DNA of 64,000 bases, taken from Escherichia coli. Its GTDB lineage: Bacteria; Pseudomonadota; Gammaproteobacteria; Enterobacterales; Enterobacteriaceae. This document shows, in pieces, positions 6,388 to 37,287 of the stretch. The stretch lies in assembly GCF_050320075.1 (NCBI RefSeq), contig NZ_CP190018.1; one strand, written 5' to 3'. Under the pieces are notes generated by a model. That model did no database searches. It saw nothing but the letters and a program-made list of their open reading frames with translations, and was not told where the DNA came from. Position 1 is the first letter of the stretch. Each line of letters begins with the position of its first letter. Both the position numbers and the translations under genes were made by a program.

Positions 6388-7008
6388 ATGAAAACTACGC
6401 ATACCGCCCTCCCCTTTGCCGGAAATACGCTGCATTTTGTTAAGTTCGATCCGGCGAGTTTTTGTGAGCAGGATTTACTCTGGCTGCCACACTACGCGCA
6501 ACTGCAACACGCTGGACGTAAACGTAAAACAGAGCATTTAGCCGGACGGATCGCTGCAGTTTATGCGCTGCGGGAATATGGCTATAAATGTGTGCCCGCA
6601 ATCGGCGAGCTACGCCAACCTGTGTGGCCTGCGGGGGTATACGGCAGTATTAGCCACTGTGGGGCTACGGCATTAGCCGTGGTATCTCGTCAACCGATTG
6701 GCATTGATATTGAAGAAATTTTTTCTGCGCAAACAGCGGCAGAATTGACAGACAACATTATTACACCAGCAGAACACGAGCGACTCGCAGAATGCGGTTT
6801 AACCTTTTCTCTGGCGCTGACACTGGCATTTTCCGCCAAAGAGAGCGCATTTAAGGCAAGCAAGATACAGGCCGCTCAAGGTTTTCTGGATTATCAGATA
6901 ATTAGCTGGAATAAACAGCAGATCATCATTCGACTAGAGGATGAGCAGTTTGCTGTGCACTGGCAGATAAAAGAAAAAATAGTCATAACGCTGTGCCAAC
7001 ACGATTAA
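6388..7008 (+). CDS. entD: Enterobactin synthase phosphopantetheinyl transferase
   Basis: ORF 6238..7008; start chosen at MKTTHTALPFAGNTLHFVKFDP...; alternative upstream starts exist (MVDM at 6379). Confidence 0.85.
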   Translation: MKTTHTALPFAGNTLHFVKFDPASFCEQDLLWLPHYAQLQHAGRKRKTEHLAGRIAAVYALREYGYKCVPAIGELRQPVWPAGVYGSISHCGATALAVVSRQPIGIDIEEIFSAQTAAELTDNIITPAEHERLAECGLTFSLALTLAFSAKESAFKASKIQAAQGFLDYQIISWNKQQIIIRLEDEQFAVHWQIKEKIVITLCQHD

Positions 7009-20223: not shown

Positions 20224-21661
20224 GCCATTTCAGCGCCCGTTTTCGCTGGCAACCCGCCTGACCTTTTTTATCAGCCTGGCCACCATCGCGGCGTTTTTCG
20301 CCTTTGCCTGGATCATGATTCACTCGGTAAAAGTGCATTTTGCTGAGCAGGATATTAATGATTTAAAAGAGATTAGCGCCACACTCAAGCGCGTTCTTAA
20401 TCATCCCGAAGAGACACAAGCCCGACGCTTAATGACGCTGGAAGATATCGTCAGTGGTTATTCCAATGTGTTGATTTCCCTGGCAGATAGCCAGGGTAAA
20501 ACGGTGTATCACTCCCCCGGTGCGCCGGATATCCGCGAGTTTACGCGTGACGCCATACCCGATAAAGACACGCGGGGCGGCGAGGTGTATCTCCTTTCCG
20601 GCCCGACGATTATGATGCCGGGCCACGGTCACGGGCATATGGAACACAGCAACTGGCGGATGATTAACTTGCCGGTTGGCCCGTTGGTGGACGGCAAACC
20701 GATTTATACGCTCTACATCGCGCTTTCGATCGATTTTCATCTTCATTACATAAATGATTTGATGAATAAACTTATTATGACCGCATCGATCATCAGCATC
20801 CTGATCGTCTTTATCGTGCTGTTGGCGGTACATAAAGGTCACGCACCGATCCGCAGCGTCAGCCGTCAAATCCAGAACATTACCTCGAAAGATCTCGACG
20901 TTCGCCTTGACCCGCAGACCGTGCCGATTGAGCTGGAACAGCTGGTACTGTCGTTCAACCATATGATCGAGCGTATTGAGGATGTCTTTACTCGCCAGTC
21001 CAATTTCTCAGCGGATATCGCTCACGAAATTCGTACACCAATTACGAATCTCATAACGCAAACCGAAATCGCCCTCAGCCAGTCACGCAGCCAGAAGGAG
21101 CTGGAAGATGTGCTCTACTCTAATCTCGAAGAGCTGACGCGAATGGCGAAAATGGTCAGCGATATGCTGTTTCTCGCCCAGGCCGATAACAACCAGCTAA
21201 TCCCCGAAAAGAAAATGCTCAACCTGGCGGATGAAATCGGCAAAGTGTTCGATTTTTTCGAGGCGCTAGCGGAAGATCGCGGCGTGGAACTGCGGTTTGT
21301 TGGTGACGAGTGTCAGGTTGCGGGCGATCCGCTGATGCTGCGTCGGGCGTTAAGCAACCTGCTTTCGAACGCCCTGCGTTATACGCCGCCCGGAGAGGCG
21401 ATTGTAGTGCGCTGCCAGACGGTCGATCACCAGGTGCAAGTTTCCGTCGAAAACCCCGGTACGCCCATTGCGCCCGAGCACTTACCGCGATTGTTTGACC
21501 GTTTCTACCGCGTTGACCCCTCCCGCCAGCGAAAAGGCGAAGGTAGCGGTATTGGGCTGGCGATAGTGAAATCGATTGTTGTCGCGCATAAAGGCACGGT
21601 TGCAGTAACGTCAGATGCTCGGGGGACAAGGTTTGTGATTATGCTGCCGGAGAGAGAGTGA
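20213..21661 (+). CDS. cusS: Copper-sensing histidine kinase
   Basis: ORF 20201..21661; start at [16 protein letters not shown]...; H-box ([12 protein letters not shown]) and ATPase motifs; overlaps cusR stop. Confidence 0.95.
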
Positions 21662-22397
21662 TTATTAAGTTCAAATTCAGGGCGTGGTGCATCACCTCCT
21701 GGTATTGTTGATCAACAAATTAGAGAAAAACTTATTAAACATATGAAATATCGAAGGCTTTTATTTTTCAAAGTTTCACGAGATGTTTGTATATGAAACT
21801 TAGTTAAATCTGTGTTTCTTCCAATTGTAGATCACAATGCCCTTTCTAAATTTTCATCGTTATAAACAAGCCATCTATCATATAAAGCAATGAATAATTT
21901 AATCGCGATTAATCATCATTAATTGTTATATTATTCACTCAATCTATTTATCAAGTGAATTTGATAAATTCCTAATTTAAAATATCCACTATTGAGCCAG
22001 TATTTAACAACGTTAAGATGTGCAATGTGCAGATCATGTTATCAGGGTGGAGCGGTAGCATATATTTCTTATGCAATCATTCATTTTAATAATGTTAATT
22101 GGATTATTTATTGCTGTGAATAAAAATATATTATGAATATTGGTTTAACTTTGCGTTTTTGTTACTCGTTGTGATATGCGTACCTGTCCTGAATAACGCC
22201 AAGAAACAAGAGGTTGAGCTTGTGATTATTTTTTTGACTGAACAGACACCCGTTTCTGTAAAGTAATATTTAAACAAAATTCTCACATAACCATAGCATT
22301 TTCTGTTCCTTCCCTAATAACGTCTGAAGTCGTCCCGCTTATCACATTATCCGCAGTTGTACGGTACGGATCATTATTCATTTTACTGGAGGTTGCT

Positions 22398-24299
22398 ATG
22401 TCAACCGGATTACGTTTCACACTGGAAGTGGACGGCCTGCCGCCGGATGCTTTTGCGGTGGTTTCCTTTCATCTGAACCAGTCACTCTCTTCGCTCTTTT
22501 CCCTCGATCTCTCCCTGGTCAGCCAGCAGTTTCTCTCCCTTGAATTTGCGCAGGTGCTGGACAAAATGGCCTACCTGACGGTATGGCAGGGCGATGACGT
22601 ACAGCGCCGGGTGAAAGGCGTGGTGACCTGGTTTGAACTCGGGGAGAACGACAAAAACCAGATGCTGTACAGCATGAAGGTGCACCCGCCGCTGTGGCGT
22701 GCCGGTCTGCGCCAGAACTTCCGTATCTTCCAGAACGAGGACATCAAAAGCATCCTCGGCACGATGTTGCAGGAAAACGGGGTGACCGAATGGAGTCCGC
22801 TGTTCAGCGAGCCGCATCCTTCCCGTGAGTTTTGTGTCCAGTACGGTGAGACTGATTACGATTTCCTGTGCCGGATGGCGGCGGAGGAAGGCATCTTCTT
22901 TTATGAGGAGCATGCTTACAAAAGTACCGACCAGAGCCTGGTGCTGTGCGACACAGTCCGCCATCTGCCCGAATCTTTTGAAATCCCATGGAACCCGAAC
23001 ACCCGTACCGAGGTGAGCACCCTCTGCATCAGCCAGTTCCGCTACAGCGCACAAATCCGCCCTTCTTCCGTGGTGACCAAAGACTACACCTTTAAACGCC
23101 CCGGCTGGGCCGGACGTTTTGAACAGGAAGGCCAGCACCAGGACTACCAGCGCACGCAGTATGAAGTGTATGACTACCCCGGACGTTTCAAGGGTGCCCA
23201 CGGGCAGAACTTTGCCCGCTGGCAGATGGACGGCTGGCGAAACAATGCAGAAACCGCGCGGGGAATGAGTCGCTCGCCGGAGATATGGCCGGGACGACGA
23301 ATTGTGCTGACGGGGCATCCGCAGGCGAACCTGAACCGGGAATGGCAGGTGGTGGCAAGTGAACTGCACGGCGAACAGCCACAGGCGGTGCCAGGACGGC
23401 AGGGAGCGGGGACGGCGCTGGAGAACCATTTTGCGGTGATCCCGGCAGACAGAACATGGCGACCACAGCCGTTGCTGAAACCGCTGGTCGACGGCCCGCA
23501 GAGCGCTGTCGTGACAGGACCGGCAGGCGAGGAAATCTTCTGCGACGAACATGGTCGCGTGCGGGTGAAGTTCAACTGGGACCGCTATAACCCGTCAAAC
23601 CAGGACAGTTCGTGCTGGATCCGTGTGGCACAGGCGTGGGCAGGCACCGGTTTTGGCCACCTGGCGATACCGCGTGTGGGTCAGGAGGTGATTGTAGACT
23701 TCCTCAACGGCGATCCGGACCAGCCGATCATTATGGGGCGCACCTACCACCAGGAAAACCGCACCCCCGGCAGCCTGCCGGGAACAAAGACGCAGATGAC
23801 CATCCGCTCCAAAACGTACATGGGCAGCGGATTTAATGAGCTGAAGTTTGATGATGCGACAGGGAGAGAACAGGTCTACATCCACGCGCAGAAGAACATG
23901 GATACCGAAGTGCTCAACGACCGTACCACCACCGTAAAACACGATCACCACGAAACCGTAAAAAATGACCAGACGGTCACGATCCAGGAAGGTAACCGCC
24001 TTCTTACGGTGGAAAAAGGCCACAAGATCACCGGAGTACTGAAAGGGTCTTTATCTGAGGATGTCTTTCAGGACAGAGGCACGATTGCCGGTTCGGTGCA
24101 TGTTGACGCTGTAAACAATGGTGGCGAAGGCGACGGTATACAGGCTTATACGGCGATTAAGGAAATTTTGCTGGCCGTGGAGGAAAGCAAAATTGCGCTG
24201 ACGCCGGATGGCATTCAGCTACAGGTCGGGGAATCGACGGTAATCAGGCTGTCGAAGGATGGCATCACCATCGTGGGCGGTTCTGTTTTCATCAACTGA
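22398..24299 (+). CDS. vgrG: Type VI secretion spike protein VgrG (gp27/gp5-like)
   Basis: 633-aa ORF MSTGLRFTLEVDGLPPDAFAVVSFHLNQSLSSLFSLDLSLVSQ... typical VgrG N-terminus; GGAGG RBS 7 nt upstream. Confidence 0.9.
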   Translation: MSTGLRFTLEVDGLPPDAFAVVSFHLNQSLSSLFSLDLSLVSQQFLSLEFAQVLDKMAYLTVWQGDDVQRRVKGVVTWFELGENDKNQMLYSMKVHPPLWRAGLRQNFRIFQNEDIKSILGTMLQENGVTEWSPLFSEPHPSREFCVQYGETDYDFLCRMAAEEGIFFYEEHAYKSTDQSLVLCDTVRHLPESFEIPWNPNTRTEVSTLCISQFRYSAQIRPSSVVTKDYTFKRPGWAGRFEQEGQHQDYQRTQYEVYDYPGRFKGAHGQNFARWQMDGWRNNAETARGMSRSPEIWPGRRIVLTGHPQANLNREWQVVASELHGEQPQAVPGRQGAGTALENHFAVIPADRTWRPQPLLKPLVDGPQSAVVTGPAGEEIFCDEHGRVRVKFNWDRYNPSNQDSSCWIRVAQAWAGTGFGHLAIPRVGQEVIVDFLNGDPDQPIIMGRTYHQENRTPGSLPGTKTQMTIRSKTYMGSGFNELKFDDATGREQVYIHAQKNMDTEVLNDRTTTVKHDHHETVKNDQTVTIQEGNRLLTVEKGHKITGVLKGSLSEDVFQDRGTIAGSVHVDAVNNGGEGDGIQAYTAIKEILLAVEESKIALTPDGIQLQVGESTVIRLSKDGITIVGGSVFIN

Positions 24300-24807: not shown

Positions 24808-27800
24808 ATGAGTGAAGGACCAGGCGGGCCACAGGGAGCGACCGCAGGCGGTACGCTGGCAATGCGAATGCTGTCACAGCAGGCGATGGTCGCCAGCCAG
24901 ATGAAACGGGCAGCCAACGACAAAGCCATTGCACAGATGCTGGCATCAAAAAAGTCCGGCCCCCCCGCCGCCAGGCTGGGCGATGAAATTCAGCACAAGA
25001 GTTTTTTGGGGGCGCTGGCAGGGGCCGTGCTGGGGGCGATAGTGACCATCGCAGAAGGTTGCCTGATTATGGCCGCCTGTGCCACCGGCCCTTATGCGCT
25101 GGTTCTGGTGCCTGCGCTGATGTATGCCAGCTATAAGGCGAGTGATTATGTGGAGGAGAAACAGAACCAGCTTGAATCATGGATAAACAGCTTTTGTGAC
25201 ACGGACGGCGCCATCAATACCGGTTCTGAAAATGTAAACATTAACGGAAAGCCCGCTGCCAGGGCCGCCGTCACCCTTCCCCCTCCTCCCCCACCTGGAG
25301 CAATACCTGAAATCCCACAGGGGGAACCCTCATGGGGTGATATTGCCACTGACCTGCTTGAATCGGCAGCGGAAAAAGCAGTACCACTGGCGAAGGCCTG
25401 GGGGAACGCTGTTATCACCCTGACGGACAGCAATGCCGGTTTTATGGATCGCGTCAGCGCCGGCGCATCGCTTCTGTTTCCCGCCGGTCCGGTATTAATG
25501 GAGTTTGCCACCATGGTGGGCGGGCGTGGCGAAATCAAAAAAGATGTGGATTTCCCGGAAGCCGGTGAGGACACGGCGCTCTGCGACAAGGAGAACAAAC
25601 CACCGAGGATAGCCCAGGGCAGCAGCAACGTCTTTATCAACAATCAGCCCGCCGCGCGCAAGGGCGACAAACTGGAGTGCAGCGCGGCAATCGTGGAAGG
25701 TTCGCCGGACGTCTTTATTGGCGGTGAACAGGTGACCTATCTGGATATCCAGCCAGAGTTCCCGCCGTGGCAGAGAATGATCCTGGGGGGAATAACGATA
25801 GCCAGCTATCTTCTGCCGCCAGCGGGACTGCTGGGAAAACTGAAGAATCTGGCGAGACTCGGCAAACTGGGGAACCTGCTGGGGAAAAGCGGGAAGCTGC
25901 TGGGGGCAAAGCTCGGCGCGTTGCTGGGAAAAACAGGTAAGTCGTTAAAAAGTATTGCCAATAAAGTCATCAGATGGGTAACAGATCCTGTCGATCCGGT
26001 AACCGGCGCGTACTGCGACGAACGTACCGACTTTACGCTGGGCCAGACCCTCCCCCTCTCCTTCACCCGTTTCCACAGTTCTGTACTGCCGCTGCATGGC
26101 CTGACCGGCGTGGGCTGGAGCGACTCCTGGAGCGAATACGCCTGGGTGCGTGAACAGGGAAACCGGGTGGATATCATCAGCCAGGGAGCCACGCTGAACT
26201 TCGCCTTCGACGGTGACAGTGATACGGCGGTTAACCCGTATCACGCCCAGTACATTCTGCGCCGCCGCGATGATTATCTGGAGCTGTTCGACAGGGATGC
26301 ACTGAGCAGCCGCTTCTTTTATGACGCCTTTCCGGGAATGCGTCTGCGCCACCCGGTGACTGACGATACCAGCGATGACCGCCTGGCACACAGCCCCAAT
26401 GACCGGATGTACATGCTGGGCGGGATGAGCGACACCGCCAGCAACCGCATCACGTTTGAGCGCGACAGCCAGTACCGGATCACAGGTGTCAGTCACACCG
26501 ACGGGATCCGGCTTAAACTGACGTACCACGCCAGCGGCTACCTGAAAGCCATTCACCGCACGGATAACGGCATACAGACGCTGGCGACCTACGAACAGGA
26601 TGCGCGGGGGCGGCTGACAGAAGCGGATGCGCGGCTGGACTACCACCTGTTTTATGAGTACGACGCTGCGGACCGGATCATCCGCTGGTCCGATAACGAC
26701 CAGACGTGGAGCCGTTTCACCTACGATGAACAGGGCCGGTGCGTGAATGTCACCGGGGCGGAGGGCTATTACAACGCCACGCTGGACTATGGTGACGGCT
26801 GCACCACCGTGACGGACGGCAAGGGCATTCACCGTTATTACTATGATCCTGACGGCAATATTCTGCGGGAAGCAGCGCCGGACGGCAGCACCACCATGTA
26901 TGAATGGGATGAATTCCATCACCTGCTGGCCCGTCACTCCCCTGCCGGGCGGGTGGAGAAATTTGAATACAACGCCGCACACGGTCAGTTAAGCCGTTAC
27001 ACGGCGGCAGACGGCGCGGAGTGGCAGTACCGCTATGATGAGCGCGGCCTGCTCAGCAACATCACCGACCCTGCCGGGCAGACGTGGACACAGCAGTGTG
27101 ATGAACGCGGCCTGCCGGTAAGTCTGGTGTCGCCACAGGGCGAAGAGACCCGGCTGGCATACACCGCTCAGGGGCTGCTGTCGGGAATATTCCGCCAGGA
27201 TGAACGGCGTCTGGGCATAGAGTACGACCACCACAACCGGCCGGAAACACTCACCGACGTGATGGGCCGCGAACACCACACCGAATACAGTGGTCACGAC
27301 CTGCCGGTGAAGATGCGCGGCCCCGGCGGTCAGTCAGTGAGGTTGCAGTGGCAGCAGCACCATAAACTGAGCGGCCTTGAGCGCACTGGCACCGGCGCGG
27401 AAGGATTCCGCTACGACCGTCACGGCAACCTGCTGGCGTACACGGACGGTAACGGTGTTGTCTGGACAATGGAGTACGGCCCGTTTGATTTGCCGGTGGC
27501 GCGAACGGACGGTGAAGGCCACCGCTGGCAGTACCGCTACGATAAAGACACGCTGCAACTGACAGAAGTCATCAACCCGCAGGGTGAGTCATATCTTTAT
27601 GTTCTGGATAACTGCGGCCGGGTGACGGAAGAGCGTGACTGGGGCGGCGTGGTCTGGCGTTACCGTTATGATGCCGATGGCCTGTGTACCGCCAGGGTTA
27701 ACGGTCTGGAGGAAACCATCCTCTACAGCCGGGACGCCGCAGGCCGCCTGGCAGAAGTCATCACGCCGGAAGGCAAAACGCAGTATGCGTATGACAAATC

Positions 27801-29640
27801 CGGCAGGCTGACGGGTATCTTCAGCCCGGACGGCACATCACAGCGCACCGGCTATGACGAACGCGGGCGGGTGAATGTCACCACTCAGGGCCGACGGGCC
27901 ATTGAATACCACTACCCCGATGAACACACCGTCATCCGCTGTATCCTGCCACCGGAAGATGAACGCGACAGACACCCCGGTGAATCCCTGCTGAAAACCA
28001 CGTACCGCTACAACGCAGCCGGAGAACTGGCAGAGGTCATCCTGCCGGAGGATGAGACGCTGACGTTCAGCCGTGATGAGGCAGGACGTGAAGTGCTCCG
28101 GCACAGTAACCGGGGTTTTGCCTGTGAGCAGGGCTGGAATGCAGCCGGTCAGCTTACCAGCCAGCGCGCCGGACTTTTCCCGGCGGAAGCCACATGGGGC
28201 GGACTGCTCCCCTCACTGGTGCGGGAGTACCGTTACGACAGCGCGGGCAATGTGTCGGCTGTCACCAGCCGGGAAGATTACGGACGGGAAACTCGCCGGG
28301 AGTACCGGCTGGACCGGAACGGCCAGGTCACGGCGGTGACAGCCTCAGGCACCGGGCTGGGCTATGGCGAAGGCGATGAGTCCTATGGCTATGACAGCTG
28401 CGGCTACCTGAAGGCGCAGTCTGCGGGCTGGCACCGGATAAGTGAAGAGACTGACCAGTATGCCGGAGGCCACCGGCTGAAACAGGCCGGAAACACGCAG
28501 TATGACTATGACGCCGCAGGCCGGATGGTCAGCCGCATAAAACACCGTGACGGCTACCGCCCGGAAACAGAGCGGTTCCGGTGGGACAGCCGTGACCAGC
28601 TGACCGGGTATTGCAGCGCACAGGGTGAACAGTGGGAATACCGCCACGACGCCAGCGGCAGACGGACGGAAAAACGCTGCGACCGGAAGAAAATCCGCAT
28701 CACGTACCTGTGGGACGGCGACAGTATTGCGGAAATCCGGGAATACCGCGATGATAAACTGTACAGCGTACGGCACCTGGTGTTTAACGGCTTTGAGCTG
28801 ATAAGCCAGCAGTGCAGCCGGGTACGGCAGCCGCATCCGTCCGTGGCCCCGCAGTGGGTGACGCGGACGAATCATGCGGTGAGCGACCTGACGGGCCGTC
28901 CGCTGATGCTCTTTAACAGTGAAGGTAAAACCGTCTGGCGACCGGGGCAGACCAGCCTGTGGGGGCTGGCACTCAGCCTGCCCGCAGACACCGGCTACCC
29001 GGACCCGCGCGGGGAACTGGACGCGGAAGCCGACCCCGGCCTGCTGTATGCAGGACAGTGGCAGGATGCGGAATCCGGGCTGTGCTATAACCGGTTCCGG
29101 TATTACGAGCCGGAAACAGGGATGTACCTGGTGAGTGATCCGCTGGGGTTGCTGGGGGGTGAGCAGACTTACCGGTATGTGCCGAATCCGTGTGGGTATG
29201 TTGATCCGCTGGGATTAGCATTTTGCCCCAGAATGCAGAAGACATTGCAAAAATTAACTGACAAGGCTGTTGCTGATATTATCGCTAACCCCAGACTCGC
29301 TGAAGATCTGATGTCGGCGGGGAGCTATGCACATTTAAAAAATGGAACTAATTTATATGCAGCCAGTTTTGGTAAGGCTGTTGAACGTAGGGTTGCACAG
29401 TTAGTTAGTGACAATTCCCGATTAAGCAAACTTGTTGAACATACTGGTCAGGCCAAGGGGGCTAATGGACAGTTTATATCGAGCCCTGACTTCACCACTA
29501 AAGGTAAAGGCGTGTTCGACGTTACAACAAATAAAGCACTCCAAGCGCATATAGACAGATATACTAAAGCTGGTGTGTATACTCCCTATAATGATATTGG
29601 TTACTTGGTATATGATGTCGTATATGGATTATCTTTCTAA
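24808..29640 (+). CDS. rhs: prePAAR/PAAR-domain Rhs polymorphic toxin (T6SS effector) with C-terminal toxin domain
   Basis: 1610-aa ORF; N-terminal AARLGDEIQH (prePAAR AARxxDxxxH), hydrophobic TM segments, PAAR-like segments (NINGKPAAR, FINNQPAARKGD), long YD-repeat region, Rhs core ending PCGYVDPLGL (PxxxxDPxGL) at 29188-29217, followed by ~141-aa low-GC C-terminal domain. Confidence 0.9.
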   Translation: MSEGPGGPQGATAGGTLAMRMLSQQAMVASQMKRAANDKAIAQMLASKKSGPPAARLGDEIQHKSFLGALAGAVLGAIVTIAEGCLIMAACATGPYALVLVPALMYASYKASDYVEEKQNQLESWINSFCDTDGAINTGSENVNINGKPAARAAVTLPPPPPPGAIPEIPQGEPSWGDIATDLLESAAEKAVPLAKAWGNAVITLTDSNAGFMDRVSAGASLLFPAGPVLMEFATMVGGRGEIKKDVDFPEAGEDTALCDKENKPPRIAQGSSNVFINNQPAARKGDKLECSAAIVEGSPDVFIGGEQVTYLDIQPEFPPWQRMILGGITIASYLLPPAGLLGKLKNLARLGKLGNLLGKSGKLLGAKLGALLGKTGKSLKSIANKVIRWVTDPVDPVTGAYCDERTDFTLGQTLPLSFTRFHSSVLPLHGLTGVGWSDSWSEYAWVREQGNRVDIISQGATLNFAFDGDSDTAVNPYHAQYILRRRDDYLELFDRDALSSRFFYDAFPGMRLRHPVTDDTSDDRLAHSPNDRMYMLGGMSDTASNRITFERDSQYRITGVSHTDGIRLKLTYHASGYLKAIHRTDNGIQTLATYEQDARGRLTEADARLDYHLFYEYDAADRIIRWSDNDQTWSRFTYDEQGRCVNVTGAEGYYNATLDYGDGCTTVTDGKGIHRYYYDPDGNILREAAPDGSTTMYEWDEFHHLLARHSPAGRVEKFEYNAAHGQLSRYTAADGAEWQYRYDERGLLSNITDPAGQTWTQQCDERGLPVSLVSPQGEETRLAYTAQGLLSGIFRQDERRLGIEYDHHNRPETLTDVMGREHHTEYSGHDLPVKMRGPGGQSVRLQWQQHHKLSGLERTGTGAEGFRYDRHGNLLAYTDGNGVVWTMEYGPFDLPVARTDGEGHRWQYRYDKDTLQLTEVINPQGESYLYVLDNCGRVTEERDWGGVVWRYRYDADGLCTARVNGLEETILYSRDAAGRLAEVITPEGKTQYAYDKSGRLTGIFSPDGTSQRTGYDERGRVNVTTQGRRAIEYHYPDEHTVIRCILPPEDERDRHPGESLLKTTYRYNAAGELAEVILPEDETLTFSRDEAGREVLRHSNRGFACEQGWNAAGQLTSQRAGLFPAEATWGGLLPSLVREYRYDSAGNVSAVTSREDYGRETRREYRLDRNGQVTAVTASGTGLGYGEGDESYGYDSCGYLKAQSAGWHRISEETDQYAGGHRLKQAGNTQYDYDAAGRMVSRIKHRDGYRPETERFRWDSRDQLTGYCSAQGEQWEYRHDASGRRTEKRCDRKKIRITYLWDGDSIAEIREYRDDKLYSVRHLVFNGFELISQQCSRVRQPHPSVAPQWVTRTNHAVSDLTGRPLMLFNSEGKTVWRPGQTSLWGLALSLPADTGYPDPRGELDAEADPGLLYAGQWQDAESGLCYNRFRYYEPETGMYLVSDPLGLLGGEQTYRYVPNPCGYVDPLGLAFCPRMQKTLQKLTDKAVADIIANPRLAEDLMSAGSYAHLKNGTNLYAASFGKAVERRVAQLVSDNSRLSKLVEHTGQAKGANGQFISSPDFTTKGKGVFDVTTNKALQAHIDRYTKAGVYTPYNDIGYLVYDVVYGLSF
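27186..29217 (+). repeat. Direct repeat copy 1 (3' part of Rhs core, ~2.03 kb)
   Basis: Near-identical to 30384..32412 (visible by eye: ATTCCGCCAGGATGAACGGCGTCTGGGCATAGAGTACGACCACCAC... through ...GATCCGCTGGGATT). Confidence 0.9.
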
Positions 29641-30373: not shown

Positions 30374-30383
30374 ATAAGGGTTA

Positions 30384-32412
30384 TATTCCGCCAGGATGAA
30401 CGGCGTCTGGGCATAGAGTACGACCACCACAACCGGCCGGAAACACTCACCGACGTGATGGGCCGCGAACACCACACCGAATACAGTGGTCACGACCTGC
30501 CGGTGAAGATGCGCGGCCCCGGCGGTCAGTCAGTGCGCTTACAGTGGCAGCAGCACCATAAACTGAGTGGCCTTGAGCGCACTGGCACCGGCGCGGAAGG
30601 ATTCCGCTACGACCGCCACGGCAACCTGCTGGCCTGGACGGACGGTAACGGTGTTGTCTGGACAATGGAATACGGCCCGTTTGATTTGCCGGTGGCGCGA
30701 ACGGACGGTGAAGGCCACCGCTGGCAGTACCGCTACGATAAAGACACGCTGCAACTGACAGAAGTCATTAACCCGCAGGGTGAGTCATATCTTTATGTTC
30801 TGGATAACTGCGGCCGGGTGACGGAAGAGCATGACTGGGGCGGCGTGGTCTGGCGTTACCGCTATGACGCCGATGGCCTGTGTACCGCCAGGGTCAACGG
30901 CCTGGAGGAAACCATCCTCTACAGCCGGGACGCCGCAGGCCGCCTGGCAGAAGTCATCACGCCGGAAGGCAAAACGCAGTATGCCTATGACAAATCCGGC
31001 AGGCTGACGGGTATCTTCAGCCCGGACGGCACATCACAGCGCACCGGCTATGACGAACGCGGGCGGGTGAATGTCACCACTCAGGGCCGACGGGCCATTG
31101 AATACCACTACCCCGACGAACACACCGTCATCCGCTGTATCCTGCCACCGGAAGATGAACGCGACAGACACCCCGGTGAATCCCTGCTGAAAACCACGTA
31201 CCGCTACAACGCCGCCGGAGAACTGACGGAGGTCATTCTGCCGGGGGATGAGACGCTGACGTTCAGCCGTGATGAGGCAGGACGTGAAGTGCTCCGGCAC
31301 AGTAACCGGGGTTTTGCCTGTGAACAGGGCTGGAATGCAGCCGGTCAGCCTGTCAGTCAGCGCGCCGGACTTTTCCCGGCAGAAGCCACATGGGGCGGGC
31401 TGCTCCCCTCACGGGTACGGGAGTACCGTTACGACAGCGCGGGTAATGTGTCAGGCGTCACCAGCCGGGAAGATTACGGACGGGAAACACGGCGGGAATA
31501 CCGGCTGGACCGGAACGGCCAGGTCACGGCGGTGACAGCCTCAGGCACCGGGCTGGGCTATGGCGAAGGCGATGAGTCCTATGGCTATGACAGCTGCGGC
31601 TACCTGAAGGCGCAGTCTGCGGGCTGGCACCGGATAAGTGAAGAGACTGACCAGTATGCCGGAGGCCACCGGCTGAAACAGGCCGGAAACACGCAGTATG
31701 ACTATGACGCCGCAGGCCGGATGGTCAGCCGCATAAAACACCGTGACGGCTACCGCCCGGAAACAGAGCGGTTCCGGTGGGACAGCCGTGACCAGCTGAC
31801 CGGGTATTGCAGCGCACAGGGTGAACAGTGGGAATACCGCCACGACGCCAGCGGCAGACGGACGGAAAAACGCTGCGACCGGAAGAAAATCCGCATCACG
31901 TACCTGTGGGACGGCGAAGTATTGCGGAAATCCGGGAATACCGCGATGATAAACTGTACAGCGTACGGCACCTGGTGTTTAACGGCTTTGAGCTGATAAG
32001 CCAGCAGTTCAGCCGGGTACGGCAGGCGCATCCGTCGGTGGCCCCGCAGTGGGTGACACGGACGAATCATGCGGTGAGCGACCTGACGGGCCGTCCGCTG
32101 ATGCTCTTTAACAGTGAAGGTAAAACCGTCTGGCGACCGGGACAGACCAGCCTGTGGGGGCTGGCACTCAGCCTGCCCGCAGACACCGGCTACCCGGACC
32201 CGCGCGGGGAACTGGACCCGGAAGCCGACCCCGGCCTGCTGTATGCAGGACAGTGGCAGGATGCAGAATCCGGGCTGTGCTATAACCGGTTCCGGTATTA
32301 CGAGCCGGAAACCGGGATGTACCTGGTGAGTGATCCGCTGGGGTTGCTGGGGGGTGAGCAGACTTACCGGTATGTGCCAAATCCGTGTGGGTGGGTTGAT
32401 CCGCTGGGATTG
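30384..32412 (+). repeat. Direct repeat copy 2 (orphan Rhs core fragment)
   Basis: See copy 1 at 27186..29217. Confidence 0.9.
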
Positions 32413-32865
32413 GCTGCAAGTTCTAAAATCAGCAGTTTGATGGACTATATTGGCGATGGTCGTCGTGTTAGTGGGCATACGGGTTTCCTGGATGGGGTTC
32501 GTTTATCACGTAGTCAAATAAACAATATTGCTAAAGAAATGGAGAAGCTAGGAATTAAAGTAATAAGGAAAGCAGATAAATATTTGCCACCAAATGCTAG
32601 GGCAGCTTTTGATTATGGCCTTCGCAATATTTATCTTAGGAAAAATGCTACCTTATATGAGGTGTATCATGAAGTGATTCATGCTAAGCAATTTGCGAAA
32701 ATTGGACGAGAAGCATACGAAGCACTAGGACGTTTATCTAGGGAGGAACACGTTCTAAATGAAATATTAAAAAGTAAAAATTTATTCAATGAGGCGGAAA
32801 TAGCTCATGCCATAAAATATGTTGAGGGATTGAGAGAAAAATTCATGATGGGACTAATAAATTGA
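30384..32865 (+). pseudogene. Orphan Rhs core-fragment + alternative C-terminal toxin domain, frameshifted
   Basis: Repeats the 3' 2 kb of the rhs core; 1-bp deletion near 31917 (GGCGAAGTATTGCGG vs GGCGACAGTATTGCGG in the main copy) splits it into ORFs 30455..31996 and 31828..32865; ends DPLGL (32398-32412) + divergent ~150-aa CT containing HEVIH. Confidence 0.8.
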
Positions 32866-33113
32866 TAAAACATAACAAAATAACTATCGAAATGGCTCTT
32901 GACTTGGCTCGGCGTGAGTTAGAGTTAAGGGAAATTCCTTATATTAAAAATAGTCTACATGCCAATTACAGCTATAAATCTATTAGTATTGGTTCTAAGC
33001 AAGGTTGGTTAATTTCAGCGAAATTAAAAGTCCCTGAAACTTTTGAGCCTGATATGATATTTATTGAGATATCTGACCCAGAAGGTTTTATTAATATTCC
33101 TGATGTATTATAA
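32862..33113 (+). CDS. Putative immunity protein for the orphan Rhs-CT
   Basis: 83-aa low-GC ORF overlapping the orphan CT stop; start codon uncertain (TTG in ORF track). Confidence 0.45.
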   Translation: MIKHNKITIEMALDLARRELELREIPYIKNSLHANYSYKSISIGSKQGWLISAKLKVPETFEPDMIFIEISDPEGFINIPDVL

Positions 33114-33309
33114 ACTACGTTAGAGGTTTTGTTATAAGGTAATCGGTTTCTTTACAGACCGCTGGCGTACATCGCACAGAGGCTGCTAACAGGGATATTC
33201 CTGCCTGGATGAACGCAAGGCAAGATCATGGAAATAGTGATATACATCACTATTTCCATCCTGATTTTAGCTATCGCATTAATAAAACAGCGGATGTTAG
33301 CCAATATCG

Positions 33310-33500
33310 AAACCAGTAACCCGTATCACGCCCAGTACATCCTGCGCCGCCGCGATGATTACCTGGTGCTGTTCGACCGTGATGCCCTGAGCTGCCGCTT
33401 CTTTTATGACGCCTTTCCGGGAATGCGTCTGCGCCACCAGGTGACCGGCGATACCGACGATGACCGCCTGGCACACAGCCCCGCAGACCGGATGTATACA
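33310..33500 (+). pseudogene. Vestigial Rhs core fragment
   Basis: NPYHAQYILRRRDDYLVLFDRDALSCRFFYDAFPGMRLRH... matches main rhs at ~26228..26420; embedded in ORF 33228..33539 with unrelated flanks. Confidence 0.7.
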
Positions 33501-33579
33501 GGGAAAGATCATCAGAAGTACACTTTTTGTACTAAATAATTCACATTTTATGTTTAAAAATTGAGATATTCCTCATTAC

Positions 33580-34800
33580 CTGAAGCTGTTTTTTATTGCT
33601 TATACATGATCAAATACTCCTTACATAATTAAGGAGAACAAAATGGAACTTAAAAAATTGATGGAACATATTTCTATTATTCCCGATTACAGACAAGCCT
33701 GGAAAGTGGAACATAAATTATCGGATATTCTATTGTTGACTATTTGTGCCGTTATTTCTGGTGCGGAAGATTGGGAAGATATAGAGGATTTTGGGGAAAC
33801 ACATCTCGATTTTTTGAAGCAATATGGTGATTTTGAAAATGGTATTCCTGTTCACGATACCATTGCCAGAGTTGTATCCTGTATCAGTCCTGCAAAATTT
33901 CACGAGTGCTTTATTAACTGGATGCGTGACTGCCATTCTTCAGATGATAAAGACGTCATTGCAATTGATGGAAAAACGCTCCGGCACTCTTATGACAAGA
34001 GTCGCCGCAGGGGAGCGATTCATGTCATTAGTGCGTTCTCAACAATGCACAGTCTGGTCATCGGACAGATCAGGACGGATGAGAAATCCAATGAGATTAC
34101 AGCTATCCCAGAACTTCTTAACATGCTGGATATTAAAGGAAAAATCATCACAACTGATGCGATGGGTTGCCAGAAAGATATTGCAGAGAAGATACAAAAA
34201 CAGGGAGGTGATTATTTATTCGCGGTAAAAGGAAACCAGGGGCGGCTAAATAAAGCCTTCGAGGAAAAATTTCCGCTGAAAGAATTAAATAATCCAGAGC
34301 ATGACAGTTACGCAATGAGTGAAAAGAGTCACGGCAGAGAAGAAATCCGTCTTCACATTGTTTGCGATGTCCCTGATGAACTTATTGATTTCACGTTTGA
34401 ATGGAAAGGTCTGAAGAAATTATGCGTGGCAGTCTCCTTTCGGTCAATAATAGCAGAACAAAAGAAAGAGCCAGAAATGACGGTCAGATATTATATTAGT
34501 TCTGCTGATTTAACCGCAGAGAAGTTCGCCACAGCAATCCGAAACCACTGGCACGTGGAGAATAAGCTGCACTGGCGTCTGGACGTGGTAATGAATGAAG
34601 ACGACTGCAAAATAAGAAGAGGAAATGCAGCAGAATTATTTTCAGGGATACGGCACATCGCTATTAATATTTTGACGAATGATAAGGTATTCAAGGCAGG
34701 GTTAAGACGTAAGATGCGAAAAGCAGCCATGGACAGAAACTATCTGGCGTCAGTCCTTGCGGGGAGCGGGCTTTCGTAATCTTGCCCTGCCTGCTCACCT
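33580..34800 (+). mobile_element. H-rpt / ISAs1-family insertion sequence (approximate bounds)
   Basis: Transposase CDS 33643..34779; terminal inverted repeats not delimited by me. Confidence 0.5.
33643..34779 (+). CDS. H-repeat-associated protein / ISAs1-family transposase (H-rpt)
   Basis: 378-aa [63 protein letters not shown]... recognised as the H-rpt (YhhI/YdcC-like) transposase that accompanies Rhs elements. Confidence 0.85.
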
Positions 34801-35049
34801 CCTCCAGGCACTTCCACTACATGATGACCTGCTCGGTGCCACCGCTCCTTTTCACTATGACGTTAACCTCCCTGTCCCAGGACACCATGCTTTTGTCTAC
34901 ATTCTACGCAAACGGCAACTTTTATAACCAGTGTAAAAATAACGTGCCGCAATAGTCATACCTATTAATGGTAAAAAGCTGTCACAATTCATAAAAAACC
35001 TTAATATACGCCACCCTAAACATAACCAGCGTTAATGTAAGGTTTTTGT

Positions 35050-37287
35050 GTGGACTGGCTTCTTGATGTTTTTGCTACCTGGCTCTACGGCTTAAAAGTA
35101 ATCGCGATAACGTTAGCGGTCATCATGTTCATCAGCGGGCTGGACGATTTTTTTATTGATGTCGTCTACTGGGTACGCCGCATTAAACGCAAGTTGAGTG
35201 TTTATCGCCGCTACCCGCGAATGAGTTACCGCGAACTGTATAAACCAGATGAAAAACCGTTAGCGATTATGGTTCCGGCGTGGAATGAAACGGGCGTCAT
35301 CGGCAATATGGCCGAGCTGGCGGCGACCACGCTCGACTATGAAAACTATCATATCTTTGTTGGCACCTACCCCAACGACCCCGATACTCAGCGTGATGTT
35401 GACGAAGTGTGCGCTCGCTTCCCGAATGTGCATAAGGTAGTCTGCGCGCGACCTGGCCCCACCAGCAAAGCCGACTGCCTGAACAACGTGCTGGACGCCA
35501 TCACCCAGTTTGAGCGTAGCGCCAATTTCGCTTTTGCTGGTTTTATTCTGCATGACGCCGAAGATGTGATTTCACCGATGGAATTGCGTCTGTTCAACTA
35601 TCTGGTCGAGCGTAAAGATCTGATTCAGATCCCGGTGTATCCGTTCGAACGCGAATGGACGCACTTCACCAGCATGACTTACATTGATGAGTTTTCAGAA
35701 CTGCATGGCAAAGATGTTCCGGTGCGTGAAGCCCTCGCCGGACAAGTGCCCAGCGCAGGCGTCGGTACCTGTTTCAGCCGCCGCGCCGTGACCGCACTGT
35801 TAGCTGACGGTGACGGTATTGCTTTCGACGTGCAGAGTCTTACTGAAGATTACGACATTGGCTTCCGCCTGAAAGAAAAAGGTATGACGGAAATTTTTGT
35901 CCGTTTTCCGGTGGTGGACGAAGCCAAAGAACGCGAGCAGCGTAAATTTTTACAGCACGCGCGGACGTCAAACATGATCTGCGTGCGCGAATATTTCCCC
36001 GATACCTTTTCGACTGCGGTTCGACAAAAATCTCGCTGGATCATCGGCATTGTTTTCCAGGGCTTTAAAACCCACAAATGGACCTCCAGTCTGACGCTGA
36101 ACTACTTTCTCTGGCGCGACCGCAAAGGGGCAATCAGTAACTTTGTCAGCTTCCTCGCGATGCTGGTGATGATCCAGCTTTTGCTGTTGCTGGCGTATGA
36201 AAGTTTGTGGCCCGATGCCTGGCATTTCCTTTCTATTTTCAGCGGCAGCGCATGGTTAATGACTCTGCTGTAGCTAAACTTTGGCTTGATGATTAACCGC
36301 ATCGTGCAGCGGGTGATTTTCGTTACTGGCTACTACGGCCTGACGCAGGGGCTGCTATCTGTCCTGCGTCTTTTCTGGGGCAACCTGATTAACTTCATGG
36401 CCAACTGGCGCGCGTTAAAACAGGTACTTCAACACGGCGATCCACGTCGTGTCGCGTGGGATAAAACAACGCATGACTTCCCCAGCGTGACTGGCGATAC
36501 CCGCTCGTTGCGTCCGTTAGGTCAAATCCTGCTGGAAAATCAGGTCATCACTGAAGAACAACTCGATACAGCACTGCGTAATCGCGTCGAAGGTCTACGC
36601 CTGGGCGGTTCAATGCTGATGCAGGGGCTGATTAGCGCCGAACAGCTGGCACAGGCGCTGGCAGAGCAAAACGGCGTGGCGTGGGAGTCGATCGACGCCT
36701 GGCAGATCCCTTCATCACTGATTGCCGAAATGCCGGCTTCCGTGGCGCTGCATTATGCAGTACTGCCGCTGCGTCTGGAAAATGATGAGTTAATTGTCGG
36801 CAGTGAAGATGGTATTGACCCGGTTTCGCTGGCGGCCCTGACGCGTAAAGTCGGACGCAAAGTGCGTTACGTCATTGTTCTGCGGGGACAAATTGTCACG
36901 GGGTTACGCCACTGGTATGCGCGCCGACGCGGTCACGATCCGCGGGCAATGTTGTACAATGCGGTTCAGCATCAGTGGCTCACGGAACAGCAGGCCGGTG
37001 AAATCTGGCGGCAATATGTGCCGCATCAGTTCCTGTTCGCCGAAATACTGACCACGCTCGGTCATATTAATCGTTCAGCAATTAACGTGTTGTTATTGCG
37101 CCATGAACGCAGTTCTCTGCCGCTCGGCAAGTTTTTGGTCACCGAAGGCGTTATCAGCCAGGAAACGTTGGATCGCGTCCTGACAATTCAACGCGAATTA
37201 CAAGTTTCGATGCAATCACTATTACTCAAAGCAGGTTTAAACACAGAACAGGTTGCGCAACTGGAGTCCGAAAATGAAGGAGAATAA
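35050..37287 (+). pseudogene. nfrB: Phage N4 adsorption protein B (family-2 glycosyltransferase), interrupted by in-frame amber codon
   Basis: ORFs 35050..36273 (407 aa) and 36286..37287 (333 aa) are in the same frame, separated only by TAG at 36271-36273; 407+1+337 = 745 codons, the full NfrB length as I recall it. Confidence 0.8.

Follow-up and report, generated by a model that had tools for sequence, protein, structure and literature searches.

The chromosomal site between cusS and nfrB is a catalogued one: among the Rhs loci of E. coli and Shigella it is listed as locus 4 (Jackson 2009; PMC2935791), and in E. coli W it is occupied by rhsW3, which has three tips (PMC3032704). The E. coli W study also describes partial cores and C-terminal tips downstream of intact rhs genes, and the presence of H-repeats (H-rpts) at the ends of Rhs elements is textbook knowledge (PMC3032704). 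We analysed a 64-kb stretch of E. coli DNA (the window), in which the gene order is cusCFBA, cusRS, a 13.3-kb island and nfrB-nfrA-ybcH-envY. The island thus lies at the same chromosomal site as locus 4, rhsW3 and the vgrG-Rhs island of O157:H7 EDL933, and it shares with them the order vgrG, DcrB-like gene, PAAR-Rhs, immunity gene, orphan tip(s), H-rpt, 118-bp segment and nfrB. The strains differ in the toxin tip of the main gene, in how many orphan tips follow it and in the left junction of the H-rpt. The H-rpts of K-12, H-rptB (yhhI in RhsB) and H-rptE (ydcC in RhsE), also lie at the distal end of their Rhs elements, but at different Rhs loci, and the cusS-nfrB site is empty in K-12.

The proximal genes of the island encode a VgrG protein (Phage_GPD and gp5 C-terminal domain) and then, directly upstream of Rhs, a DcrB-family (Eag-like) protein. 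The linked vgrG and chaperone genes that distinguish an Rhs element are therefore present, and their RefSeq names agree. The main Rhs protein is encoded by a 1610-aa ORF with prePAAR, PAAR and DUF6531 domains and nine RHS-repeat matches, as expected of such an element, and its translation contains the motif DPLGL just before the variable tip. The 236-aa ORF that follows is presumed to be the immunity gene. Downstream of the main Rhs we also found the partial core, the alternative toxin tip and the small immunity-like gene that are typical of Rhs elements. Domain content and gene order suggest toxin and immunity roles for the Rhs genes of the island. We are confident that this island, with its vgrG, DcrB-like chaperone and PAAR-Rhs genes, is a known E. 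coli Rhs element and that the region 33156-34907, whose features are collected in the table, is its decayed distal tail.

The orphan Rhs module that precedes this tail is 97.5% identical to main-Rhs positions 27187-29219, and a 1-bp deletion near 31917 shifts its reading frame. Strain 746 has an intact Rhs gene that, except for a 1-bp gap, is 99% identical to the orphan module. In that strain the main Rhs gene itself bears the metallopeptidase tip, whereas in the window this tip is carried by the orphan. The RefSeq equivalent of the small ORF located 3' of the orphan toxin is a hypothetical protein encoded directly after a metallopeptidase-toxin Rhs. Family searches (Pfam, NCBIfam) gave no match for the small immunity-like ORFs. 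Orphan rhs toxin/immunity modules are explained by a C-terminal displacement model, reportedly put forward by Jackson in 2009 and Poole in 2011. Such orphans consist of a partial core, a variable tip and a small downstream gene, which is the arrangement observed at 30383-32865. In contrast, the two Rhs scraps found further downstream, named V1 and V2, have no toxin tip.

Table. Features of the distal part of the Rhs island and of its border with nfrB (positions in the window).
Feature	Position	Strand	Basis or remark
Orphan Rhs core-plus-toxin module, Tox-MPTase4 C-terminal domain	30383..32865	+	Pfam RHS_repeat, Tox-MPTase4
Small ORF 3' of the orphan toxin, presumed cognate immunity gene (from position only)	32862..33113	+	ORF list
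V1, 60-bp decayed Rhs-core vestige	33156..33215	+	80.6% identity over 62 aligned columns to main-Rhs 27146-27206
Left-end remnant of another ISAs1-family element (ISEc26-like, K-12 yncI type), truncated	33216..~33316	+	Terminal repeat and alignment
103-aa chimeric ORF	33228..33539	+	Runs from IS remnant through Rhs scrap into ISEc1 left end
V2, vestigial internal Rhs fragment	33317..33498	+	182 bp; in frame, no stops
Complete ISEc1 (H-rpt), 1291 bp	33499..34789	+	Homology limits with K-12 H-rpts
ISEc1 left terminal inverted repeat, CAGGGAAAGATCA	33499..33511	+	
ISEc1 transposase gene, 378 aa, intact, no internal stops	33643..34779	+	
ISEc1 right terminal inverted repeat, CAGGGCAAGATTA	34777..34789	-	11/13 match to left repeat
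Non-coding 118-bp segment, single-copy and specific to this locus; distal-most piece of the island	34790..34907	.	No IS or K-12 match
Native nfrB upstream region	34908..35049	+	100% identical to K-12 from 34908 into nfrB

The IS of the tail was delimited by BLAST comparison with the K-12 H-rpts. Over exactly 1291 bp, the window copy is 98.1% identical to H-rptB (RhsB) and 97.5% identical to H-rptE (RhsE), which have the same termini. These termini, CAGGGAAAGATCA... and ...TAATCTTGCCCTG, are common to five ISEc1 copies inserted in five unrelated flanks. The length of the element agrees with the ~1.2-1.5 kb and the short terminal inverted repeats of ISAs1-family members. Of the two marks of transposition that the original prediction had named, the terminal inverted repeats were found, in an imperfect form, but the target-site duplication was not: the flanks ...GGATGTATA and CCTGCTCACC... 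have no repeat in common, and no duplication surrounds ISEc1 in any of the five copies (window, K-12 B and E, TC_EC10, EDL933). Target-site duplications have been reported for some members of the ISAs1 family. Their absence here does not exclude ISAs1 membership, since it fits a later rearrangement at the ends of the element and H-rpts are known for it.

The 378-aa ORF had been described, from the sequence alone, as an intact-looking H-rpt transposase, a reading that our searches confirmed. The start codon is preceded by a promoter-like site (33601-33629) and, immediately 5', by an AAGGAG ribosome-binding site. The protein matches DDE_Tnp_1_assoc (PF13808, 6.8e-34, aa 8-94) and DDE_Tnp_1 (PF01609, 5.9e-31, aa 102-343) in Pfam, and it covers the full NCBIfam model NF033564 'ISAs1 family transposase' (1-314) with a score of 417.1 bits (E = 4e-125), the equivalog cut-off of this model being 70 bits. 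It is 98.7% identical to K-12 YhhI, and the K-12 H-rpts as a whole show 98-99% amino-acid identity with it over the 378 residues. The name given by RefSeq to the identical sequence is 'ISAs1-like element ISEc1 family transposase'. Homology of the ORF to H-rpt/ISAs1 transposases is thus decisive.

The limits of the island were then defined by the K-12 sequence. Homology to the region upstream of nfrB restarts at 34908, so that 34907 is the last position of the island and 118 bp of island DNA follow the IS; the assignment of this region to the distal island edge is therefore correct. In a comparison set of 5426 complete E. coli genomes, the 118-bp segment was found once per genome in 2468, with 80-100% identity. 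No structured RNA was detected between 33000 and 35100 with Rfam, up to E = 1. As a separate observation, a multiple alignment looked suggestive of the 118 bp being a displaced 3' end of cusS (attR-like), but the local score was 8.0 for a shuffle mean of 8.05, and 1263 of 2000 shuffles reached 8.0; this candidate was rejected. Upstream of nfrB, 142 of the 149 bp of the K-12 cusS-nfrB intergenic region are retained.

The transposase gene had been placed about 270 nt upstream of nfrB, with a possible influence on its transcription. The spacing is right (stop at 34779, nfrB start at 35050), and an effect of the IS on the expression of nfrBA-ybcH (exopolysaccharide / phage N4 receptor), by read-through from the transposase gene or from an outward promoter in the right end, can be imagined from the co-directional arrangement of the two genes. 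A simple scan for promoters and terminators, whose counts were no different from those in shuffled sequences and which gave only the promoter-like site of the transposase and a palindrome, finds no terminator-like site on the + strand between the transposase gene and nfrB. For another ISAs1-family element, IS1548 of Streptococcus agalactiae, an effect on the expression of adjacent genes has been reported (PMC7096684). However, the same scan finds no promoter-like site in the right end of the IS, and the native 142 bp are unchanged with respect to K-12. Moreover, read-through would not be a new situation, since in K-12 the equivalent position is occupied by cusS, which is also co-directional with nfrB. 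Finally, nfrB of the window strain has a premature stop (W408*), so that any effect of the IS would be of little consequence in this strain. We thus consider such an influence unlikely.

We next consider the state of the transposase itself. Among the five copies of the gene, dN/dS ranges from 0.07 to 0.34. A value of about 0.1 indicates that the transposase is under purifying selection. This is the one feature not expected of a long-dead passenger, and it leaves room for activity or for another selected role. The junction formed by the IS right end, the 118 bp and nfrB, counted at a coverage of at least 80%, was found in 2292 of the 5426 genomes (~42%), O157:H7 included. Its fixation in these genomes argues for a long immobility of ISEc1 at the cusS-nfrB site. 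One may picture the H-rpts as selectively maintained resident transposases that insert preferentially into Rhs core, and whose copies anchor the recombination that prunes toxin tips. Three independent junctions between an Rhs scrap and an IS left terminus do exist at the cusS-nfrB locus, but we regard this picture as quite improbable. A tblastn search revealed no Rhs-like coding remnants beside the other H-rpts examined (K-12 RhsB, RhsE, TC_EC10), and the flank of the K-12 RhsB H-rpt has no Rhs similarity, whereas the left terminus of the window copy adjoins an Rhs scrap. An Rhs scrap at the IS terminus is therefore not a general feature.

The scrap that adjoins the left terminus of ISEc1 directly (33498|33499) is V2. 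A repeat of about 190 nt of the Rhs core had been announced at 33310-33500, and a match is indeed present there at a level far beyond chance: 33317-33496 aligns with main-Rhs 26232-26411 over 180 nt with 91.7% identity (E = 4e-70), and the alignment can be extended to 33498. Translated, V2 gives 60 aa with 90% identity to residues 476-535 of the main Rhs protein (1610 aa), a part that immediately follows the DUF6531 domain. V2 thus comes from the N-terminal third of the gene and not from the 3' core, which indicates a scrap generated by an IS rather than a displaced tip. Its equivalent is annotated in RefSeq as an incomplete pseudogene.

The match of V2 to the resident gene across 180 nt could be taken as the sign of a recent duplication of that gene. 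This is very unlikely for three reasons. V2 diverges from the resident gene by 8.3%, whereas the orphan module differs from that gene by 2.5%. The Rhs genes of other strains are nearer to V2, with up to 95% identity. Finally, the junction of V2 with the IS is conserved at 99-100% identity in 826 genomes. Codon by codon, V2 and the resident Rhs differ by six replacement and six silent changes. Together with the 95% identity to Rhs genes of other strains, this supports the reading of V2 as the relic of another allele.

On its left side, V2 is preceded by the truncated end of a second ISAs1-family element. The remnant begins with the terminal repeat CAAGGCAAGATCATGG, a match to the inverted-repeat motif with one mismatch at 33216, followed by a 32-bp near-perfect palindrome (33228-33259). 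We aligned it with the region upstream of K-12 yncI and with ISEc1 left ends. An intact ISEc26-like element is found in strain CV261, where it measures 1305 bp, begins with CAGGGCAAGATCATGAAAATCGTGATG and ends with a matching inverted repeat; the K-12 copy is the yncI pseudogene. The remnant has the same terminal repeat and adjacent palindrome as these elements and is about 80% identical to them over the first 55 bp (33215-33269, 80% identity to positions 6470-6524 of the K-12 piece compared). It differs from them in being only ~100 bp long, with neither transposase gene nor right end, and it has diverged further from the K-12 and CV261 copies than these have from each other. Its right limit at ~33316 is soft, because the similarity fades after about 33270.

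V1 was detected by sensitive BLAST and ends exactly at the terminus of the ISEc26-like remnant (33215/33216). It is also 82% identical to two places in the EDL933 Rhs gene. Its counterpart in the main Rhs spans position 27187, where the homology of the orphan module to the main gene starts. V1 is short and only ~81% identical to the main Rhs, and this is one of the weak points of the explanation.

The original prediction had suggested that the tail might mark how the island was mobilised or rearranged. The second part of this proposal is borne out by the comparison of strains. The stretch 33100-35060 is 100% identical in many genomes, and the left junction of the window type (spacer, V2, IS) occurs in 826 of the 5426. 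In 317 genomes, the left junction is of the O157 type, which lacks 33184-33498. O157:H7 EDL933 is devoid of exactly these 315 bp, and the left terminus of its IS adjoins position 33183, inside V1. Compared with the window IS, the EDL933 copy is a mosaic: mismatches number 17, 8 and 6 in its first three 100-bp bins but 0-3 per bin over bins 4-13. The divergent left-end variant is also encountered alone elsewhere, and this mosaic structure points to recombination between two IS copies. TC_EC10 has two H-rpts in direct orientation, and an extra 2.4 kb separates the IS right end from the 118 bp; homology breaks exactly at the IS terminus, and an inverted-repeat-like sequence, CAGGGGAGATCAT, stands just before the 118 bp. 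That the breakpoints in these strains fall exactly at IS termini and that the O157 IS is a mosaic indicate that the H-rpt marks a rearrangement of the tail.

Mobilisation, on the other hand, did not stand. The intact transposase and the location of the IS at the island edge, 118 bp from the backbone, would be compatible with an H-rpt/ISEc1 that brought the whole Rhs island into cusS-nfrB, as a composite or one-ended transposition product. Yet the only IS ends that a motif search identified in the 64-kb window are those at 33216, 33499 and 34789; all remaining matches are 2-mismatch hits at chance level (8 found, 4.6 expected). There is no IS end in the proximal 740 bp between cusS and vgrG (21600-22420 read). 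The island is thus not bounded by IS, and mobilisation by the H-rpt is unsupported. In addition, the 118 bp between the IS and the backbone are neither IS nor backbone DNA, no target-site duplication is present at the borders of the IS or of the island, and according to the literature no transposition of an H-rpt has been observed (PMC3032704). We therefore hold this scenario to be extremely improbable.

The Rhs repeat had further been described as embedded in an ORF with unrelated flanks, and this is the case: the 5' flank is the left end of the remnant IS and the 3' flank that of ISEc1. The 103-aa ORF starts in the palindrome, continues through V2 in the frame of Rhs and ends 41 nt inside ISEc1; it had no match in family searches (Pfam, NCBIfam). 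Although its 103 open codons, its hydrophobic N-terminus and the stop-free, in-frame Rhs part might evoke a real gene for a small membrane-anchored protein with an Rhs-derived domain, this is barely conceivable, given that the three segments are of separate origin (an Rhs gene and the ends of two different IS), that the start codon is inside a palindrome with a 14-bp stem, that the homologous K-12 IS-end sequence has a stop after five codons, that replacement and silent codon differences with the resident Rhs are equal in number, that in RefSeq the Rhs part alone is annotated, as an incomplete pseudogene, and that the whole segment is missing from the 317 genomes with the O157-type junction. 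The ORF is an accidental chimera and most likely not a gene.

Taken together, these data suggest the following course for the decay of the tail. The active Rhs toxin/immunity pair and a displaced orphan module stand upstream of a stack of scars, which reads V1, ISEc26-like left end (~100 bp, truncated), V2, complete ISEc1, 118 bp and nfrB upstream region. Rhs-core DNA of the tail would have been the target of ISAs1-family elements, and most of the DNA between these elements would have been lost later, through deletions and through recombination of H-rpt copies. Each junction would thereby have been left with one side exact at an IS terminus and the other at an arbitrary position, without target-site duplications, and V2, which derives from a different Rhs allele, would have been cut off where ISEc1 has its left terminus. 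The junction of ISEc1 with the 118 bp and nfrB would have been inherited vertically with the Rhs element in ~42% of E. coli, while the DNA to the left of the IS would keep turning over, as the C-terminal-displacement model expects of Rhs loci. In such a course, the 103-aa ORF would be a functionless by-product, and the IS would not have carried the island in. The strain patterns fit IS-adjacent deletion and H-rpt recombination on a fixed distal anchor; the direction of each event is inferred. Likewise, which step came first, and whether adjacent deletion or recombination between IS copies was at work, we infer from five or six compared structures rather than from a phylogeny.

The tail is a known kind of structure at a catalogued locus, and its interest beyond annotation is limited. 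For annotation, it provides the exact limits of ISEc1 (33499-34789) and places the true edge of the island at 34907 and not at the IS, and the 103-aa ORF should not be annotated as a gene. Notably, the H-rpt transposase has remained intact and constrained in an element that appears to be immobile. For the Rhs family in E. coli, this locus would be a small and clean example of how an Rhs tail decays, by nested IS insertions followed by deletions and recombination between IS copies, the distal junction of IS and backbone meanwhile being fixed across much of the species.

The proximal junction of the island falls within the final codons of cusS, where about 21 bp of the K-12 sequence (the end of cusS and the start of the intergenic region) is substituted by island sequence. 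CusS ends in ...FVIMLPERE* in the window versus ...FVITLPA* in K-12. No duplication was found at the island borders.

Compared with the intact gene of strain 746, the orphan Rhs module carrying the Tox-MPTase4 tip lacks 1 bp near position 31917 and is therefore frameshifted. In strain 746 the Tox-MPTase4 tip is joined to the main Rhs, and the first toxin/immunity pair of the window is missing. The Rhs gene of EDL933 contains a tandem duplication, the two copies of which lie 87 bp apart. This duplication sits at the core position that corresponds both to the start of the orphan module and to the end of V1, the decayed core vestige matching 27146-27206 of the main Rhs gene. This coincidence suggests that recombination recurs at a point around ATATTCCGCCAGGATGAACG.

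Feature coordinates (window positions unless another locus is named)
Feature	Position	Remark
cusS 3' end	21630-21661	proximal island junction
Orphan Rhs module	30383-32865	Tox-MPTase4 tip
ORFs of the frameshifted module	30455-31996 and 31828-32865	
Palindrome	33228-33259	ISEc26-like left end
H-rpt transposase gene	33643-34779	
IS-to-backbone segment	34790-34907	118 bp
nfrB codon 408	36271-36273	intact product 745 aa, c-di-GMP-activated glycosyltransferase
EDL933 tandem duplication	L006 2887-2947 and 2974-3034	
TC_EC10 tail	L005 1-6000	

Downstream of the module, the left-end remnant of the ISEc26-like element includes a near-perfect 32-bp palindrome (ATGGAAATAGTGATAT/ACATCACTATTTCCAT), which, together with the T-rich run just after it, was flagged as terminator-like. 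K-12 and CV261 each have an ISEc26-like element with a homologous palindrome at an equal distance from the terminus. The palindrome may be a conserved left-end feature of this IS, for example a site bound by the transposase or a terminator of read-in transcription. Pairwise dN/dS values for five H-rpt transposase genes (that of the window and those in loci L003-L006) range from 0.07 to 0.34; this indicates that these genes are under purifying selection, although no transposition has been reported.

The tail at the same locus is more elaborate in TC_EC10 than in the window. Its two H-rpts are directly oriented and flank a SUKH-3 immunity-type gene; one of them is interrupted by an internal stop. 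Three small hypothetical genes are also present, and what remains of an ISAs1-like right end (reverse complement CAGGGGAGATCAT) directly precedes the 118-bp segment, which in the window lies between the IS and the backbone. This segment is single-copy and unusually divergent between lineages: among the 2468 genomes carrying it, 1253 match at 90-95% and 542 at only 80-90%. Conservation is far higher in the IS and in the neighbouring region upstream of nfrB.

Beyond the island, codon 408 of nfrB reads TAG instead of the TGG of strain 746 and K-12, owing to one G-to-A substitution at 36272; this premature amber stop (W408*) breaks NfrB into two ORFs of 407 and 333 aa. The substitution is the sole nucleotide difference from strain 746 over the whole of nfrB. 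Loss of the phage N4 receptor polysaccharide would be expected from W408*.
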